From contig CAVNZM010000071.1 in NCBI GenBank assembly GCA_963693365.1, positions 1-15,153 on the forward strand: a stretch of DNA of 15,153 nt. Direction: 5' to 3'. Position numbers and translations under genes: made by a program. Origin of the DNA: Amoebidium appalachense. Its lineage: Eukaryota; Protista; Ichthyosporea. Shown here one piece after another: positions 2,971 through 14,272 of this stretch (positions are counted from its first letter, which is position 1; the number at the start of each line of letters is the position of its first letter). The notes below the pieces were generated by a model. That model did no database searches, was not told where the DNA came from, and was given only the letters and a program-made list of their open reading frames with translations.

Positions 2971-3398
2971 CCTCCTGGGCGCGCGCCTTGGCAGCAGCGA
3001 TTGATGCATCCAATGCGGCTACAGCCGCCTCCTTGTGGGCTGCGGACAGACGGGCGAAGGCATCAGCGACGTCAAAGGCCCAGTCACGGACAGTGTGCCC
3101 CAGTAGGGTGCTGGAGGATGAAGATGCCATACGAAACCCCTTGGGCGTCAGGAGGTGGTCATACATCCGACGACCCGGTCCGGAAGTCTGTGTGGAAAGG
3201 TGTTCGTATTGTCAGTGACGTAACACAGCCAATCAGACAATTGACAGCCCAACTGGCTGTCAATTATGACCTCACACAGCCAATCAGACATTGACAGCCC
3301 AACGTCAATAGTTACTACTTGTCAAAGCACTTGAAACAGAACACACCTCGATCACTTACCTGCTCACTCAAGTGAATTCGAAGCACACAGATGTGATG
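2969..3398 (-). pseudogene. Inverted, truncated paralogue of the 9119-11048 gene: exon end 3398-3360, intron 3359-3188, exon 3187-2969
   Basis: DHLLTPKGFRMASSSSSTLLGHTVRDWAFDVADAFARL..AAA matches the protein at 10062ff at 41/57 residues by hand count. CAG|GTAAGT donor, CTGAC branch-like site and CAG| acceptor give a phase-0 join: HHICVLRIHLSEQ|TSGPGRRMYDH. No start-containing upstream exon is present. Confidence 0.8.
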
Positions 3399-3421
3399 GT
3401 GTGTGTGTGCGTCTGTGTGCA

Positions 3422-3474
<53 letters not shown>

Positions 3475-3596
3475 TGACGGTGTGGGGGATGGGGGGGGGG
3501 GGAGGGAGGGAGCGCAGATCCTTGCTTTGCACACTTTGTACAGTCTGTAATCACTTACCTGCTCACTCAAGTGAATTCGAAGCACACAGATGTGAT

Positions 3597-3687
<91 letters not shown>

Positions 3688-3810
3688 TGACGGTGTGGGG
3701 GATGGGGGGGGGGGAGGGAGGGAGCGCAGATCCTTGCTTTGCACACTTTGTACAGTCTGTAATCACTTACCTGCTCACTCAAGTGAATTCGAAGCACACA
3801 GATGTGATGT
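3352..3810 (-). repeat. Three copies (2 full, 1 partial) of the satellite unit, inverted relative to 7307-8558
   Basis: ATCACTTACCTGCTCACTCAAGTGAATTCGAAGCACACAGATGTGATG recurs at ~3351, ~3550 and ~3762, separated by (GT)n and G-runs. Confidence 0.95.
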
Positions 3811-3966: not shown

Positions 3967-4443
3967 ATATATACATGTACCTGTCTCTACATAGTATAAC
4001 ATCGGCATACATAGTGTACTTTTACATCCATACTAATGTTTATATTTAAAATAAAAGTATATGTTTATATATATATGTATGATGATAAATATGACTATGT
4101 CTTCAATATAGATAGTCATACAGAGCGCACCGATGATGTCATCGATAAGGTAGAAAGTAATAAAAAGCCTAATGTTTACCCTTTAATCTCATATTTATCT
4201 AATAGCGCTACGATTGGTAAGTGTGATGCCACTCACCGACTATCCAATCAAATCACTGGAATGACTTCATCGGCGCTTTCATTATTCAAACTGTCGGGAT
4301 GCGCGCGATTTGATTGGTGAGTTGAAGAGTTGCTACAGAAACCGACTTTCCATACCCCCACACACCACACACACATACATCTATATATATCATACACATA
4401 TACATACAAGCGTACATATTTTTATACATATACTTATATACAC

Positions 4444-4484
<41 letters not shown>

Positions 4485-4688
4485 CTTTGTATTCTAATTT
4501 TTATTTGTATACACTGACCTTTTCATATTCTTCTAACCTACTTCCAAAAGGATCATGTAGTGATACTACTGACTTCATCAGCGCGCGCTGGGTTGCTATA
4601 CTTGGAAGACTACTTCAATGTTCATTTATTATAAATATATAAATAAATATTTACAAAAGTGAAGTTCATATGTCTTTTATTTTAGTAT

Positions 4689-4724
<36 letters not shown>

Positions 4725-5115
4725 TATTTATATAGATACCTACATATACAAGAATGATACTGTAACATACGTATACATGTAGGTGTATGGTGTGTGGTGT
4801 GTGGGGTATGGAAAGTCGGTTTCTGTAGCAACTCTTCAACTCACCAATCAAATCACGCGCATCCCGACAGTTTGAATAATGAAAGCGCCGATGAAGTCAT
4901 TCCAGTGATTTGATTGGATAGTCGGTGAGTGGCAATCACACTTACCAATCATAGCGCTATTAGATAAATATGAGATTAAAGGGTAAACATTGGGCTTTTT
5001 ATTACTTTCTACCTTATCGATGACATCATCGGTTAAATATAAACATTAGTATGGATGTAAAAGTACACTATGTATGCCGATGTTATACTATGTAGAGACA
5101 GGTACATGTATATAT
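3967..5115. repeat. ~1.15-kb imperfect palindrome (long inverted repeat with AT-rich centre)
   Basis: 3967-4048 pairs with ~5034-5115 and 4129-~4372 pairs with ~4790-5033, with about five differences. The left arm has an extra 80 bp (4049-4128). The centre holds two (AT)n tracts and CAGCGCGCGCTG (4579-4590). Confidence 0.95.
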
Positions 5116-5283
5116 ATATATATATGTGTGTGTGTGTAGACAAACAATCGTTAGTGCAGCCAATAGGACTTCGGGGTTCGTGTCAAACCTTTGATGATCG
5201 ATATAATATAGATATCTCATCACGGTGGCTGCTGATCGGCACAGTCTCTGTAGTTTCGAATCTGCGCCTTGCTGTACTGCACG

Positions 5284-6243
5284 ATGACATCTCTCCTCCA
5301 TTTCATCAGAAGTAATGGAAAATCGTTTGAAGTACGAAAAAGAAATGGAGAATTCGATGTCGTCGACTGCTTTACCGTAGCTTATAACGGAACGCGCAGC
5401 ACGGCAACAAAGGCCCGGAAATTGGTGCTGGAGCGGAATCGTGCTCTGTTTGAAAAAGAAACCACGGTCTCGGGTGCACGTGGCTCCCACTATTATTTTG
5501 CTCCTGCGGACACAATCAGCCAAATGTTAATGGCCACCGAGAGCGCCACATCCGTGGAGTTTTTAGAGGCAGACGGCGAGCGCTTCTTCCGCGCGATAGG
5601 CACCTCTCAGACCCAAGTGGACCAAGTAGTTCAAATGCGCGAAAGAACCGCTCGACGCAGCCCACCCGGCCACCCTTGCGCTATGGATGTGCCCACACAT
5701 GATGTCTCTGCACACAACGCGAGTGCGTCGACAGCGGGTAAACAGAACACACTCTTGTTGCCACCCCCCCTGCCTAACTACGAGCAGGATGTACACCACG
5801 GTGAGCCTGGCGGCGAGCACAACTACCACTCCATACTGCACGTAGCGGCACAGCAGGCAGAAGCGACTGCACTCGCCGCGAAAGTAGCGGTTTTTCAACA
5901 CGAGGAGTTTAAATTAAAACTCCAACTTGAGCACGACGAGCGCGAGATGAAGCGTCGCCACGACGAGAGGATGATGGAACTCCGTATACAAAATACACGC
6001 CTCGAGATAGAACTGAGGAGGATGGGAACAAACGAACAGAGGGAACAGGAGACGGTGATGGATGGCGAGAGGGGGCTGTGGGATATGTGGCGGAGGTCGT
6101 GGACGGGGCAGACGGCGATGGAGGGACGGGGGCAGATGGGGAAATGGTCGAGGCGGATGGGGGCGGGGAGACCCAAATGTCTGAGGGACACGGGGAGGAT
6201 CATCCGTTGTGTAACGACTGTGATAACGAGGAGATGGGTGTAA
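5284..6243 (+). CDS. Gene A, 5' part: Bro-N-like/viral-type DNA-binding domain plus coiled coil; probably continuous with 6078-6983 through a 1-nt frameshift near 6070-6075
   Basis: Long ORF from ATG 5284. VRKRNGEFDVVDCF..FAPADTISQMLMATESATSVEFLEADGERFFRAIG..VDQV resembles Bro-N-related N-terminal domains of algal/giant-virus proteins (by eye). Charged heptad stretch EEFKLKLQLEHDEREMKRRHDERMMELRIQNTRLEIELRR. Confidence 0.65.
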   Translation: MTSLLHFIRSNGKSFEVRKRNGEFDVVDCFTVAYNGTRSTATKARKLVLERNRALFEKETTVSGARGSHYYFAPADTISQMLMATESATSVEFLEADGERFFRAIGTSQTQVDQVVQMRERTARRSPPGHPCAMDVPTHDVSAHNASASTAGKQNTLLLPPPLPNYEQDVHHGEPGGEHNYHSILHVAAQQAEATALAAKVAVFQHEEFKLKLQLEHDEREMKRRHDERMMELRIQNTRLEIELRRMGTNEQREQETVMDGERGLWDMWRRSWTGQTAMEGRGQMGKWSRRMGAGRPKCLRDTGRIIRCVTTVITRRWV

Positions 6244-6983
6244 AGGAGACGGAACACGAACAGGAGAGCACAGTGACAGAGGAACGGCGTGCCACGCAAG
6301 AGGATAAACTGAAACGGCTACAAGATATTATCAACAGTGCCCGAGGGTTCGAGCGGGTCTACCGCGATGAAATTTATGACAAACCCGTCTACGACGAAAG
6401 CGGCGTCAACCGCATCCTTGTATTTTATCAGCAGACACTGGAAAGCCTCATCCTACAGGTCGACGGCGTGTGGGATAGCACGGACACGGATACCGTCCGC
6501 GCCAAAGGAAAACGGGTTGTCGACGAGATCCTGGGGCTTCTCGCCAAGGCCGACGCACAGCACACAGCACCCCAAAAGCGCCCTGCTTCGGACACCCGCG
6601 CCGCCGACACCAGACGTGCTAAGCGCACCAAGAGGACGCCCACTCACAGGGAGCGGCTAGTTAGCAAATTCTTCGAGTGGCTCAAGGAATCGGCCCCCTG
6701 TGGTGCGGTCTGTCTTCTTCGTCACCTCAGGGACCTGTTCCACAGGGAGGCTAGCAGTGAGAGCAGGACTTTCGCACGAGCGCCTCTGTCTACGGATGAA
6801 GTAGCTAGGTTTTTGGGCAAGCAGGTATCTGTGTATTTTTGTACTATAAACAGGATAGAGGTGTTGCGTGATGAAAAAGGGGAAGTTTATGCCGTGAGAC
6901 TCCCTAAGAACCGTTTAGGAAAGCCCGGCTATCCGCGCCATAAGGCAAGAGGGTACTTTCTCGGGAATCTGGTGTGTGCTTGA
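6078..6983 (+). CDS. Gene A, 3' part: acidic linker, BAG-like domain (~6306-6554), basic NLS, possible winged-helix C-terminus
   Basis: QQTLESLILQVDGV..DTVRAKGKRVVDEILGLLAKAD fits BAG helices 2-3 (L..LL.LDGV..VR..RK..V..I..LL..LD). RRAKRTKR is NLS-like. The ORF has only a GTG start; one extra G in the G5 run at 6071-6075 fuses it to the upstream ORF. Confidence 0.7.
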   Translation: MGYVAEVVDGADGDGGTGADGEMVEADGGGETQMSEGHGEDHPLCNDCDNEEMGVKETEHEQESTVTEERRATQEDKLKRLQDIINSARGFERVYRDEIYDKPVYDESGVNRILVFYQQTLESLILQVDGVWDSTDTDTVRAKGKRVVDEILGLLAKADAQHTAPQKRPASDTRAADTRRAKRTKRTPTHRERLVSKFFEWLKESAPCGAVCLLRHLRDLFHREASSESRTFARAPLSTDEVARFLGKQVSVYFCTINRIEVLRDEKGEVYAVRLPKNRLGKPGYPRHKARGYFLGNLVCA

Positions 6984-7235: not shown

Positions 7236-7272
7236 CCACACACACACACACGCACACACACACACGTGTCAC

Positions 7273-8702
<1,430 letters not shown>

Positions 8703-8799
8703 TATACGGATGATAGCGCTATTATATATTAGAATGGAAAAGTTGGCACTTTGGAGTTACATTGGGGTTGTGACAGGTGTGTGAGCACCGTAAAGCAGT

Positions 8800-9118: not shown

Positions 9119-9421
9119 ATGGCTTCCACCTACGCCATCTATGAGCGCCTCAACATTGCCGGTGCCAAAGAGGCCGGCTTCCCTCCCATCTCTCCCGAGC
9201 TCGAGCGCCTGCTGGGCACCGTGGGCGACGACGTGGTGGCCAAGGTGCTGCGCTTCCTCGACCCGTTCCTGTATGACTGCAAGGAGACCATCTCCGGGCG
9301 CGCCGTGTTCCGCCTGCTGGGGTACGGCAACTACAACGAGTTTGTGAGAGCCATGTTCAAGGGGCAGAAGGGGTCGCCTGGTTTTGTCCCCGCTGGATGC
9401 TACAGTGTTGTTGAGATGGAG
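9119..9421 (+). CDS. Gene B exon 1 (join 9119-9421,10032-11048; 439 aa): N-terminal half of an AntA/MSV199-like antirepressor-type DNA-binding domain
   Basis: Kozak-like ACCATGG; strong GC3 bias that stops abruptly at GAG|GTGTGT (9421/9422). ISGRAVFRLLGYGNYNEFVRAMF..GF..YSVV resembles the AntA/MSV199 N-terminal pattern. Confidence 0.8.
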
Positions 9422-10031
9422 GTGTGTATGTGTATTTTTGTGTTTATGCGTTGCTATGACATAACCAGTTTGCCGTAGATGACATCAATTCATGGAAGCC
9501 ATCCAATCAAAAAACTTCAGCCATTTTGGCTGAAGTTTTTTTTTGCTTGGCTTAGGTGGTATAATGTGATGTCATCACTTCTCAGCCTCAGGGCTGAAAA
9601 GTCATTTCGTCATTTTTGCGTCATCACTTTAGTCTCTACCATAACTCAAAAGTCTTGTCGTCAAAATTACGTCACTTGTGTCTTGCCGGTAATCGCGTGA
9701 CAGCTTGACTTTTGATTGGCCTTGTGACGTCATCACTTTCCCGGCACCGTGCCGGAAAAGTTTTGATTGGTGAGGTGAGGTCATCACTTTTCAGCTTTGT
9801 AGCTGAAAATTTTGATGGTGTGAGTCATATTTTCAGTTTACTGAAAAGTTTTATTGGTGAGGTGAGGTCATCACTTTTCAGCTTTGTAGCTGAAAAGTTT
9901 TGATTGGTGAAGTGACGTCACAATGACGCATCAGCTCCAATAGCTGTGACGTCATAATGACGAATCAGCTACAAGAGCTGAGACGTAGCCGAATTAACTG
10001 ACCCCCCCCCCCCCCCCCCCCCCCAATACAG
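9422..10031 (+). other. 610-nt phase-0 spliceosomal intron of gene B containing an array of palindromes between TGATTGG / TGA(C/G)GTCAT linkers
   Basis: GT donor at 9422, CTGAC branch-like motif ~9998, poly-C tract, CAG acceptor ending 10031. The join is in frame: VVEME|TPKSGGSAPMDHH. Confidence 0.85.
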
Positions 10032-11048
10032 ACTCCCAAGTCCGGTGGTTCGGCCCCTATGGACCATCACATGACGCCCAAAGGGTTTCGCATGGCGTCA
10101 TCTTCTACCAACACTCTGTTAGGCCAGACTGTGCGTCTGTGGGCCTTTGATGTTGCCGAGGCCTTTGCCCGTCTGGCCGCCAACCGCAAGGACGAGGCCG
10201 TTTCTGCCCTGCGCGCCACCCTTGCTGCGGCCGAAGCAAACGCGGCCGCTGCGGCCTCCGAGCGCGACCAGGCCATGGGCGACAAGACGGCTGCCGAGTT
10301 AGCCAAGGAGGCCGCGGAGGCCGCCCAGGCCGAGGCACTCGCCACCCTCGCTGCCGCTCTCGCCCGCGTGAAGCTCGAACCACTCACCCTCCCGACCCGC
10401 ATGCCTCTCACAACCGGCGGCACGTACACGGACAACCATAAGTTCAAGCGCCTGACGCGCGCGTTCGCGTATGTGTGCGTGGACACGCTGTACGGCGAAG
10501 GCGTGCGCTGCGCCAGCACGTACACGGGCATGATCATGGCCACCACGGGCGTGTGCTTTGTGTTCCAGTCGGGGGAGATTTCCAACATCATCGCCACCAC
10601 CGGGCTGCAGAAGGCCATGAAGGAGCGCATCCGGCTGTGGACCGGCGAGGAGCCCAAGTACTCGACCGACATGACCACGCAGCAGCTGTACACCTTTGTC
10701 TACAACTACACGCGCTGGTACGTCGAGTACTGCAAGGCGCCGGTGCTGCGCCAGTCGACCATCAACAACGCGGACACGGGCGCTGCCGAGTACGAGGTGC
10801 ACGTCGAGCTGGCGTCGTGGCTGGAGGCCATCCAGGACAAGTTCCCCGACATCGAGCCGCTGGAGCTCGGGCGCACCGTCAGCCTCAACGACCCCCTTGT
10901 GGAGCGCGGCGAGCAGCTCAAGGGGCAGACCCAGCTGGACGTGTATGTGCAGCGCGGGCGGCTGGGGCGGAAGCGCAAGGTCGCCCGCCTGCAGAAGCCC
11001 GAGGGCCCCGTTGATGTTGTGGTGATTGCGGACAGTGATAGTGAGTGA
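10032..11048 (+). CDS. Gene B exon 2: C-terminal half of the AntA/MSV199-like domain, Ala-rich coiled coil, unknown globular domain, PIP-box/NLS/SIM-like tail
   Basis: Long open frame with very high GC3. GGSAPMDHHMTPKGFRMASSSTNTLLGQTVRLWAFDV parallels the AntA pattern GGRPxxDYxLTxxxxKxxxMxxxxxxGxxxRxYF. Ends QTQLDVYV..RKRK..VDVVVIADSDSE*. Confidence 0.85.
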   Translation, partial: TPKSGGSAPMDHHMTPKGFRMASSSTNTLLGQTVRLWAFDVAEAFARLAANRKDEAVSALRATLAAAEANAAAAASERDQAMGDKTAAELAKEAAEAAQAEALATLAAALARVKLEPLTLPTRMPLTTGGTYTDNHKFKRLTRAFAYVCVDTLYGEGVRCASTYTGMIMATTGVCFVFQSGEISNIIATTGLQKAMKERIRLWTGEEPKYSTDMTTQQLYTFVYNYTRWYVEYCKAPVLRQSTINNADTGAAEYEVHVELASWLEAIQDKFPDIEPLELGRTVSLNDPLVERGEQLKGQTQLDVYVQRGRLGRKRKVARLQKPEGPVDVVVIADSDSE

Positions 11049-11249: not shown

Positions 11250-11376
11250 TAACCCTGACCAAAAACCAAAAGTGATGACACAACTCGGTGCAACCAGACC
11301 CAATTAAAAAAGTCCCGCTATGTCATGGCTAACCCTGACCAAAAACCAAAAGTGATGACGCAACTCGGTCCAACCA
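11250..11376. repeat. Direct repeat, 2 copies of ~47 bp, period 80 bp
   Basis: TAACCCTGACCAAAAACCAAAAGTGATGAC(A/G)CAACTCGGT(G/C)CAACCA at 11250 and 11330. Confidence 0.9.
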
Positions 11377-11481: not shown

Positions 11482-12129
11482 CTTACCAATGATAGCGCTA
11501 TTATAAATTAGAATTGAGTTGTGTGTGTGTGTGTGCTTGCTCGGAATTGTGTCAGGCTGTGCAGCGCTAGAGCGCAGCGCCAGCGCGCCTGCCGGCGGGT
11601 GTTCTTTGTTATCAGAGTAGATATGTCATCATATGCGTTGACGTCATTTTGACGTCATCCGCTTACTTAAATAGACTTGGTTGGCGCTGGGGATGATGGG
11701 CCATCTGCATCATGTAGTTCTGCGCTGTACGTGGGAATAACCTGTGCAACATAAGCTCTCAATTGTAATTACAATAAATGCAAAAAATCTTGAATTGTAT
11801 TTTTCATGGTGGGTGCATAAGCGTGAGACTTTCCATCATGGGTTCATCAATATGCAAATTGTTCTCTTGGGGCTGAGACTTCATCCAATCGGTTTTCGGT
11901 AGAATTTGATTGGCCTAACCTGGATTTCCAAATGTTCTCTTGGAAGCCGTTATTTGGTGGGGGGATAGATGCGTAGATGCGTAAAACACGATTTAATTCA
12001 AGCAAAATCGCGAGAGAGAAAATGGATTGCTGCGCCAAAGAGTTCATGGTATATTTGTAAACATTTAGGCAGTCAAGGGCTCCGAAATGGCTTCAGTCCT
12101 TTTGCACTCACTCCCAATACTGAGATCAC

Positions 12130-12283: not shown

Positions 12284-12347
12284 GTCAACATCTCGTAGGC
12301 CTCTGCCATCATTCTACAACCACAGACACTCAGGTGACACATACAAA

Positions 12348-13115
12348 ATGTACATGTCACAGACACTGCACACCGCGATGGAAATCGGCGCTCCTGGCGC
12401 TGCGCCTGTCTCCCAGCCGGCCGTATTCAACACCTTCACGTTTCCACCCACCCCACAACCCGACCTGGACATCATACAGAGTACCGACTTCATTCCGCTG
12501 ACGTCCGACGATTTTGCTGCTTTTGACAACCAACTAGGTGACGGCTCCATGCTCCATGCGCCCACCCCGACGACGGCTAAGAGCCACGGCCAGCACCACG
12601 TCTTCGACTTCGACATGGTCTGCGGCGAGACAATCCCCCCCTCTCCGGCGCGTCCTGTTCCCGCACGTCTGCATCTGCAAGCGGTCTCCTCTCACGCCCC
12701 CACGCTGCCACCCACCACAACCACGCCAGCAACAACATGGTTTGGCCGGCTCAGGTCTGCCGAGAACCAGGATTCCGATACGAGACAATGGAAGCGCTCG
12801 CGCGCTAACATCTCAATGACCAAAAAGCCACCTGGTGAAATCAAAGCCCTCGCCACTGCTGGTGATTGGAGGCGCCATCTTGCACCCCTGCCTGTTTCAC
12901 AGATGTTGGGCGAGGCGCTCGACAGACTTAGCCCGTTGTGCCTTGTACCGTTCATCAGCTGCACGCTCCCTTTTGCAGCTAGCAAAGAGCAGCTCTCCTA
13001 CCTCGACGCTGGTAGCATCTGTGCGCTTCTCGGCTTCAGGGACATCGATGAGATACGCGACCGTCTCGATCAGGCCAAAATCGCAAACGCCCGTGATGTA
13101 CCAGGCACAGAAGCG
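12348..13115 (+). CDS. Gene C exon 1 (join 12348-13115,13550-14272; ~496 aa): Pro/Thr-rich disordered N-terminus, then first half of a Bro-N-like domain
   Basis: ORF 12348 reads as protein up to GCG|GTAGGA (13115/13116), after which it runs into microsatellite. YLDAGSICALLGFRDIDEIRD resembles Bro-N FxxxDVCxxLGYxN. Confidence 0.7.
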
Positions 13116-13136
13116 GTAGGAGCCCCCCCCCCCCCC

Positions 13137-13358
13137 CCACACACGCACACACAAGGCTTCCACACACACACACACACACACGCACACACAAGGCTTCCAC
13201 ACACACGCACACACACGCACACACAAGGCTTCCACACACACGCACACACAAGGCTTCCACACACACACACACACAAGGCTTCACACACGCACACACAAGG
13301 CTTCCACACACACACACACACACACAAGGCTTCACACATGCACACACAAGGCTTCCAC
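13137..13358. repeat. Minisatellite inside the gene C intron (13116-13549): 8 x [(CA)n-AAGGCTTC]
   Basis: CAAGGCTTC occurs eight times, separated by CA tracts of variable length. Confidence 0.9.
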
Positions 13359-13549
13359 CGACACTTTATCAACACCCCTACTAAATGGTGGATCCGGGCA
13401 CCATAGTGGTCGTGGCTACGGTGGCGTTTTGTGTGGGCATGTTCTTTCTCAGTGTCCTTGACTATCTCTTCCCCGTGTTCTCGGATCCGATTAAGGGGGA
13501 CCCACCCCCGCCATACTCAATCCATGCTGATACTTGGTGATTCCTACAG

Positions 13550-14272
13550 GGTTCCCCGCACTACTACAAGGAGGGCAACTTCATGCTGGTCTCGCCCGCT
13601 GCGTTTCTTCACCTGACCACCCAGGTCTTGTACGAGTCCCCCCTGGCCCTCGATTTTCTGGGATGGTTTAACAGCGCCCGCAACAAGGAGCTGCACTTGC
13701 ACGAAACCCGGCTCTATGAGAAGACCCGCGGCGCGCCCCCTTCCACCACCCCTCTGGATGCCACCCGCCACATTCGCGCTACCTTTGTCGGTTTCCTGGT
13801 GGCCACACTCAGCTCGACATCCGTGCTTGACGTCCACAGCCTGGTGACCATCCTTGAAAAGGTGGCCAATGTGCAAGTCACTTCACGCTTCAAGACCCGC
13901 AACATCTGCGCCCCGCACGCCGAGGCGCTGGTTTTCAAGGTGCTTGCCCAGCGCATCAATATAGACACGGGCGTTTCGATAGCGTCTGCGCTCGACATCA
14001 ACACGTTGCACCTCTACACGTTTCTCTCGCGCGCCCTTGAGGCTCTGGATGTTGACGTACCCCATCCACACGGCGTCCCTGCCAGCAGCACCCACAAGGA
14101 CCCCCAGCTGCGCGACCTGAGGAAGCTGGGTCGCTCCCTCGAGAAGGACTTTGCCGGCATACGCCAGTTGCCCCTGGAGCCCAAGTCCTTCTTCTATGCC
14201 ATGCCGGAGCGCCAGGACACCCCGGCCGGACACGAAGTGTGCGCGTGCTTCAGGATGGATCGGAGTCTTTAG
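13550..14272 (+). CDS. Gene C exon 2: second half of the Bro-N-like domain plus unknown helical domain
   Basis: TTCCTACAG|GGT acceptor (13549/13550) is in frame with ORF 13583-14272. FMLVSPAAFLHLTT..SPLALDFLGWF resembles Bro-N xxxSEsGLYxLxxxSxxPxAxxFxxWV. High GC3. Further 3' splicing cannot be excluded. Confidence 0.75.
   Translation, partial: GSPHYYKEGNFMLVSPAAFLHLTTQVLYESPLALDFLGWFNSARNKELHLHETRLYEKTRGAPPSTTPLDATRHIRATFVGFLVATLSSTSVLDVHSLVTILEKVANVQVTSRFKTRNICAPHAEALVFKVLAQRINIDTGVSIASALDINTLHLYTFLSRALEALDVDVPHPHGVPASSTHKDPQLRDLRKLGRSLEKDFAGIRQLPLEPKSFFYAMPERQDTPAGHEVCACFRMDRSL

Follow-up and report, generated by a model that had tools for sequence, protein, structure and literature searches.

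An array of palindromes in the predicted intron of a putative AntA/MSV199-type gene of Amoebidium appalachense

Gene B and the palindromic units of its intron

We studied a stretch of 15,153 nucleotides of Amoebidium appalachense DNA (contig CAVNZM010000071.1), called the window below, which is eukaryotic-looking and rich in CA repeats. Its gene B was read as two exons whose joining (Table 1) gives a product of 439 aa; this spliced product, given in the original prediction, and its phase-0 GT..AG intron hold computationally. The segment between the exons is predicted from the sequence to be a spliced intron; it contained 10 to 16 stops per reading frame and folded strongly as RNA (z = -8.0). 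Exon 1 is predicted to encode the first half of an AntA-like DNA-binding domain, with a putative recognition helix at about residues 70-80; the structure model of this exon presented a helix at residues 72-80. Models were built by halves, with a pLDDT of 68 for exon 1 and a mean pLDDT of 37 for exon 2, in which the Ala-rich long helix, possibly a coiled coil, had values of 50-62. Family searches of gene B found no transposase, nuclease or polymerase domain.

Table 1 Positions of gene B, its intronic units and the truncated paralog in the window
Feature	Position	Strand	Description
Gene B exon 1	9119..9421	+	101 codons; ORF and GT donor; homologs P0002-P0005 and P0007 at 31-51% identity
Predicted gene B intron	9422..10031	+	Phase 0, GT..polyC..AG; predicted from sequence
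Gene B exon 2	10032..11048	+	Putative GG wing and last domain helices, Ala-rich predicted long helix, C-terminal domain without family
Unit 1	9512..9538		27 nt; arms reach 9509-9541 (15-bp arms); CCAAT in front
Unit 2	9577..9602		26 nt
Unit 3	9626..9653		Degenerate; outer arms only
Unit 4	9735..9761		27 nt; symmetric inner variant; TGACGTCA before, TTTGATTGG after
Unit 5	9786..9811		26 nt; half-site ACTTTTCAGC
Unit 6	9828..9849		Shortened, 22 nt
Unit 7	9873..9898		26 nt; 11-bp arms without mismatch; copy of unit 5 by an 87-nt duplication
Unit 8	9926..9952		27 nt; different outer arms; 34-nt tandem repeat with TGACGTCA
Unit 9	9960..9986		27 nt; like unit 8
Paralog unit in intron remnant	3239..3265	-	CAGC core as in gene B; outer arms symmetrically changed; ATTGG and GTCA linkers as in gene B
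Truncated paralog, exon-2 fragment	2990..3188	-	79% identity over 39 aa; phase-0 acceptor as in gene B

The intronic palindrome array is a real feature: six hairpins scoring at least 7 were observed in 9500-9990, as compared with a mean of 0.48 and a maximum of 4 in 300 dinucleotide shuffles. The hairpins reported earlier at 9509-9541, 9577-9602, 9626-9653, 9735-9761, 9788-9809, 9830-9847 and 9873-9898 were all found there, as was CAGCT-n5-AGCTG at 9932-9946; its second occurrence, given as 9965-9981, correctly spans 9966-9980. Read with fixed ends, the intron contains nine units: seven well formed, of 26-27 nt with 10-bp arms and a spacer of 6-7 nt, one degenerate (9626) and one shortened (9828).

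The seven well-formed units were aligned with the unit of a paralog (see below), giving eight rows. In this alignment 80 of the 88 arm pairs were Watson-Crick and 14 of the 20 deviations in the left arm were still paired, in agreement with the early claim that symmetry is kept while the cores differ. None of 20,000 column shuffles matched the observed pairing, a count that yields no probability value since the units are related. The eight mismatches comprised three C·A and no G·U. Description of the cores as variable was partly right: the units differ mainly in spacer and outer arms, but CAGC occupied arm positions 7-10 in 7/8 aligned units, and those at 9786 and 9873 are copies within an 87-nt duplication. 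The spacer was 7 nt long in five of the eight. The linkers, described as constant, are not; the full AAAAGTTTTGATTGG tail follows only the units at 9735 and 9873 and is elsewhere degenerate or absent. Related peptides are indeed encoded by several units, but in different frames, SSLLSLRAEKS in frame 0 and both SSLSRHRAGKV and SSLFSFVAEKF in frame 2. Local duplications, of 34, 51 and 87 nt, have enlarged the array.

CRE-like words were present at 8.6/kb in the gene B intron vs 0.5/kb in the rest of the window, and CCAAT at 10.3/kb vs 2.7/kb. The unit pattern had 11 matches in the window, and all seven with at least 7/10 arm pairs sit in two paralogous introns. An Rfam search of the intron gave a best match of 22.5 bits, vs a gathering score of 90. 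Units as transcription terminators were considered and rejected: a T-tract stands before and an A-tract after the stem on both strands. The linker GTCATCACTTTT recurs on the minus strand at 2715-2885, where it opens a degenerate 27-nt unit with 7/10 arm pairs within a 92-nt repeat, and at 11250-11360, where the palindrome is absent.

Several other features were seen in the window. Inverted repeats of ~230 bp (4129-4358 and 4803-5033), 98-99% complementary around a 444-nt AT/CA-rich centre, resemble a foldback or MITE-like element, and their arms contain CCAAT words. A ~160-bp satellite with CA runs is present in about eight copies at 7270-8596 (+) and in three at 3340-3810 (-), the latter interrupting the intron of the truncated paralog. 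A motif of ~28 nt, ATGATAGCGCTATTATA..TTAGAAT, follows a CA run at ~8709-8740 and ~11489-11520, thus flanking gene B, and a similar word lies inside the 4129-5033 inverted repeat; the two flanking motifs are possible element ends. A two-exon-looking gene at 12340-14272 has an I[DS]A..ICALLGF motif that by eye resembles the AntA-like domain; its intron contains a 25-nt CA-rich repeat without palindromes, and our home-made AntA/MSV199 HMMs did not detect it. Weak XPG_N and XPG_I matches (E 0.08 and 0.0013) at 127-862 correspond to a broken or spliced FEN1/XPG-like nuclease, and two overlapping long ORFs of 329 and 350 aa at 5254-6983 had no family match above the cutoff.

Copies and homologs of gene B

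The array belongs to the gene B family. On the minus strand of the window a truncated paralog retains an exon-2 fragment and, in its intron remnant, one unit of the gene B type with a second, truncated unit just upstream (Table 1); its exon 1 is absent from the window. This paralog differs from gene B both in the outer arms and in the residues after GG. Diverged gene B copies were numerous in contigs from three of the four public runs examined. Run X1 had 481 matching contigs, distributed over the identity bands 99 and above, 95-99, 90-95 and below 90 as 240, 122, 82 and 37; joints such as 9771>9724 and 9768>9737, which enclose new letters, and the joint 9390>9724 place unit 4 in other arrangements, and some copies change helix residue 71. 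Runs X9 and X13, very small at 1-3 million letters, contained much of the gene B family, intron included, which suggests strong multicopy status or enrichment of the family. Run X23, presumed to be RNA, gave 0 matching contigs, a result that speaks neither for nor against expression.

A protein search with exon 1 retrieved six matching proteins, one of them (P0006) rejected as a false match to a repeat protein. P0002, a hypothetical protein annotated in a Daphnia sinensis assembly (we keep the source as annotated), was homologous to both exons, at 52% and 47% identity, and its gene model continues through an insert located where gene B has its intron. This insert matched the window intron in translation (E 7e-5). 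By back-translation, and hence inferred from peptides rather than read from DNA, it allowed a perfect 10+6+10 palindrome at 4 of 331 centres, two of them a tandem duplicate, and one of these palindromes has ACTTTTCAGC for its half-site, as units 5 and 7 do. Control proteins allowed such palindromes at 6/2,728 centres, none similar. An array of this kind is thus carried at the same intron by two further genes, the truncated paralog and, with the reservation just given, P0002. The ORFs of P0003, P0004 and P0007 stop shortly past the gene B intron position, as expected if the intron is common to them. Helix-face residues vary among the homologs and F75 is invariant; of five helix positions, three are not the same in gene B and P0002, yet the two share one half-site.

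Coding palindromes of AntA and MSV199-like genes and their possible relation to gene B

AntA genes of bacteria and phages and MSV199-like genes of giant viruses were collected by motifs downstream of the loop that precedes the GG motif. The 241 AntA and 242 giant-virus loci gave 216 and 190 distinct family domains, and Pfam confirmed all seven of the collected genes that were tested. The original prediction placed a short variable segment of antirepressor-type domains just before GG; this was confirmed, and the segment turned out to be a palindrome in the coding DNA. With at least 8/9 arm pairs it was present in 148/216 bacterial and phage AntA domains and in 141/190 giant-virus MSV199-like domains, and nine AntA and 14 giant-virus genes had two or more. 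In a first sample of 97 AntA and 91 giant-virus genes, left after removal of non-family and stop-containing rows, 54/97 and 51/91 scored at least 8. Synonymous recoding of the same sample gave means of 2.3 and 7.2 genes at this score (maxima of 7 and 12), and control windows gave 0-9 (AntA) and 1-16 (giant virus).

The geometry of the loop palindrome was fixed, with arms of 9-10 bp and a spacer of 6 nt, and its centre was even in 64/66 AntA and 55/56 giant-virus cases. It was read in three frames in bacteria (54/32/53) and in two in giant viruses, and its mismatches were G·U or A·C in 15 vs 11 cases (AntA) and 9 vs 14 (giant virus). Both the several reading frames and the missing preference for G·U indicate that the palindrome acts at the DNA level and that the loop peptide is a by-product. 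In the simplest reading, the loop palindrome behaves as a self-operator, each protein binding the palindrome in its own gene. A 50-aa phage ORF, not AntA by eye, also contains an in-frame 30-nt palindrome with arms like those of unit 7 (L001:601-630).

Covariation between protein and palindrome was examined in the 139 AntA and 127 giant-virus genes with a single palindrome. The terms recognition helix and wing are used here as inferred labels; searches by sequence found no solved relative for alignment A1 or for the AntA alignment. In both families the excess mutual information with the inner half-site (-7..-4) peaked on one face of a helix, in the pattern i, i+1, i+3, i+4, i+7/8, at consensus positions 17, 18, 20 and 21 of AntA and 28, 30, 31 and 34 of the giant-virus domains. 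Five helix columns predicted the inner bases with accuracies of 0.79 and 0.75, vs 0.52 and 0.35 for the rest of the domain, with relatives of at least 75% excluded and the columns chosen on those same data. When the sets were split, the top columns were shared in 6/6 (AntA) and 4/6 (giant virus), and the held-out accuracy of five columns was 0.80 and 0.70, as compared with 0.43/0.46 and 0.39/0.26 when control columns were used. In disjoint closest pairs, no change of the inner half-site accompanied an identical helix (0/15 and 0/21). Inner half-site specificity thus appears to track the helix and not the loop peptide. The outer half-site covaried with residues after GG in bacteria, a wing coupling that was not replicated in giant viruses, where the outer part hardly varies.

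The weakest step of the argument is the link of gene B, a putative AntA relative, with AntA. The AntA/MSV199 identity originally proposed stands as a remote similarity: a nine-row profile of the gene B family aligned collinearly with AntA over 90 columns (hhalign, 49%), a result that rose to 63% with E 7e-5 with a larger set. These alignments stood above all 60 column shuffles and all 50 block shuffles; with the larger set the score was 31, vs a maximum of 18.9 in the block shuffles and 14 on reversal. By part, 61% was reached with just the start of exon 2 and 8.6% with just exon 1; against the giant-virus profile the value was 2-4.5%. Exons 1 and 2, scanned separately as halves of a domain split by the intron, had no Pfam match to AntA (PF08346) or MSV199 (PF10553), and in hmmsearch with home-made HMMs the joined protein did not outscore 200 shuffles. 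Profiles compared exon by exon gave weak results as well. Searches of longer proteins with exon 1 or its alignment, of metagenome and viral contigs with exon 1, and of viral contigs with the exon-2 alignment gave no match; the ESM Atlas had no usable match for exon 1 or the C-terminal domain, PHROGs gave nothing significant for gene B, and fold searches with the exon-1 model reached at best a Foldseek E of 0.98 and a Z of 3.2.

The position of the intron is consistent with the relationship, as in this alignment with AntA it lies 21 nt past the Y codon of the loop, where the centres of the coding palindromes have medians of 18 (AntA) and 22 nt (giant virus). A palindrome of fixed geometry is thus found at the aligned loop position in gene B, but in an intron and in nine copies. 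Arms of the form ACTTTT..AAAAGT are common to gene B units and some bacterial palindromes, and unit 7 shares 15/20 arm bases with some of the latter. The spacers differ: 5/8 gene B-type units have 7 nt, whereas centres in AntA are nearly always even. The inner word CAGC occurred in 0/266 viral and bacterial single-palindrome genes, which represent two anchored subfamilies, and because of its absence from these half-sites the helix code cannot be checked for gene B. Unit patterns in viral contigs had 0, 0 and 1 matches, the last one unrelated, and the linker pattern was found at 119 metagenome loci, where neither an array nor a relative of gene B was present.

Possible functions of the array

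Two functions had been put forward for the array, and the autoregulatory one, interleaved with CCAAT/CRE activator sites, is favoured here. We consider it rather probable, from comparison of sequences, that the nine units arose by multiplication of the self-operator belonging to an AntA/MSV199-type protein, which with the CCAAT/CRE sites would autoregulate its own gene. Without leaving its ancestral position, the loop palindrome would have dropped out of the reading frame, by intronisation or by intron gain there, and, freed from coding constraint, would have expanded through the duplications described above. The array would then have gathered CCAAT and CRE motifs, likely read by host factors. 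The gene B protein would dock on the units, probably as a dimer via its predicted Ala-rich long helix, and once bound would exert negative feedback, either as a roadblock or by competition with activators. Units 8 and 9, with other outer arms that a pure self-site does not need, count against this proposal, as does the half-site common to gene B and P0002 in spite of their different helices.

The same two units, together with unit 4, deviate from the main half-site and would be explained if the units were sites for other family members, either paralogs in cross-regulation or incoming viral AntA/MSV199 proteins, the intron then acting as a decoy or sensor by which infection would switch the gene. 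Many diverged gene copies exist in the genome, including those changed at residue 71, which fits this idea. We find it rather unlikely, since half-site diversity is low, with CAGC nearly fixed, unlike a catalogue, and since the viral contigs searched gave no exact match to unit 4 and CAGC was not met in the two anchored subfamilies sampled. It is improbable that the array is an hr- or iteron-like handle of a selfish mobile unit, bound by protein for replication, recombination or mobilisation rather than for transcription control. Its architecture does resemble that of baculovirus hrs, where palindromes with CRE motifs form enhancers and origins (PMC13513840), gene copies are numerous and their arrays reshuffled, and gene B has a related 28-nt motif on either side; against this, gene B lacks the enzymatic domains searched for, and the intron position is conserved in a second species, which points to a domesticated gene.

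A neutral relic, that is, an old coding palindrome copied by slippage whose symmetry was kept by hairpin-templated repair, would account for the clear tandem duplications, for the degenerate units 3 and 6 and for the 14/190 giant-virus genes that already have two loop palindromes. We judge it very improbable because the half-site and the TTTGATTGG/GTGACGTCA linkers were kept, amid fast-changing repeats, between genes whose proteins are only ~50% identical. The other function put forward at the outset, in which the units diversify the protein or guide it, as micro-exons, donors for conversion or hairpin RNAs, is the least probable of all. The units do stand where AntA has its variable segment, the peptides they encode are similar to those of the loop, and the intron RNA folds strongly. 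However, none of the three in-frame AG..GT candidates encloses a unit in the frame of the SSL..AEK peptides, nothing at the exon junction looks like a recipient for units, and the half-sites vary little; no Rfam family matched, and the mismatches include three C·A but not one G·U. In AntA genes, moreover, several frames are used for the loop, and it is the helix that specificity follows. A CRISPR-like or silent-cassette library was likewise rejected, with linkers that vary, cores that recur and no recipient at the exon junction.

Known systems offer partial parallels to the self-operator array we favour. AriS of Listeria has an AntA domain that represses genes of its own phage, and for AntA-type domains in general DNA binding is only suggested (PMC9043618); the main text of this source has no occurrence of 'palindrom'. 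Gene B resembles AriS/AntA in its remote collinear similarity and in the loop before GG, and differs in that its palindrome is intronic and multiplied. Baculovirus hrs consist of tandem units with an imperfect ~30-bp palindrome read by the viral protein IE1, between which lie CRE/TRE sites for bZIP factors of the host, and their enhancer strength scales with both (PMC13513840). The gene B array is like them in its tandem palindromes and interleaved CRE motifs and unlike them in its units of 26-27 nt, its CAGC core and its place in a predicted spliceosomal intron; hrs are dispersed in the viral genome with an EcoRI-core palindrome, outside introns of the gene of their reader, and the parts of the source consulted mention no recognition code across family members (PMC13513840). 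At most, the array may function in the manner of an hr, without being one. The row of ~30-bp semi-palindromic iterons in PLE is read by the N-terminal domain of RepA/Odn and changes by local duplication, but it is a replication origin of a phage satellite and its reader is of another domain family (PMC8263062). Fungal SBF/APSES proteins are domesticated KilA-N, a virus-derived DNA-binding domain within a eukaryotic regulatory network (PMC4862756), a domestication parallel to that supposed for gene B, although in a different domain family and with no operator inside the gene reported in the abstract of that source. No description of loop-coded palindromes in AntA/MSV199 genes or of an intronic array was found in the literature covered, which includes few subscription papers; the intronic eukaryotic form of the loop palindrome would thus be without precedent there.

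A wider proposal, which we hold tentatively and with less confidence than that of autoregulation, is that gene B represents a domesticated virus-type gene family in which each paralog co-evolves helix and wing with its own array, forming orthogonal, self-regulating and expandable factor-operator pairs with a recognition code that can be read, and that possibly also sense viral members. If these ideas are true, a eukaryote would have retained, outside the reading frame, an operator which in phages and giant viruses is placed within a coding loop. This would be evidence from nature that it is as DNA, rather than as peptide or RNA, that the palindrome works, and would trace a concrete route from a part of an exon to an intron and an hr-like enhancer. 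The widespread and poorly characterised AntA/MSV199 family would gain a named target and a testable recognition code, and hundreds of natural protein-site pairs would become usable as orthogonal regulators.
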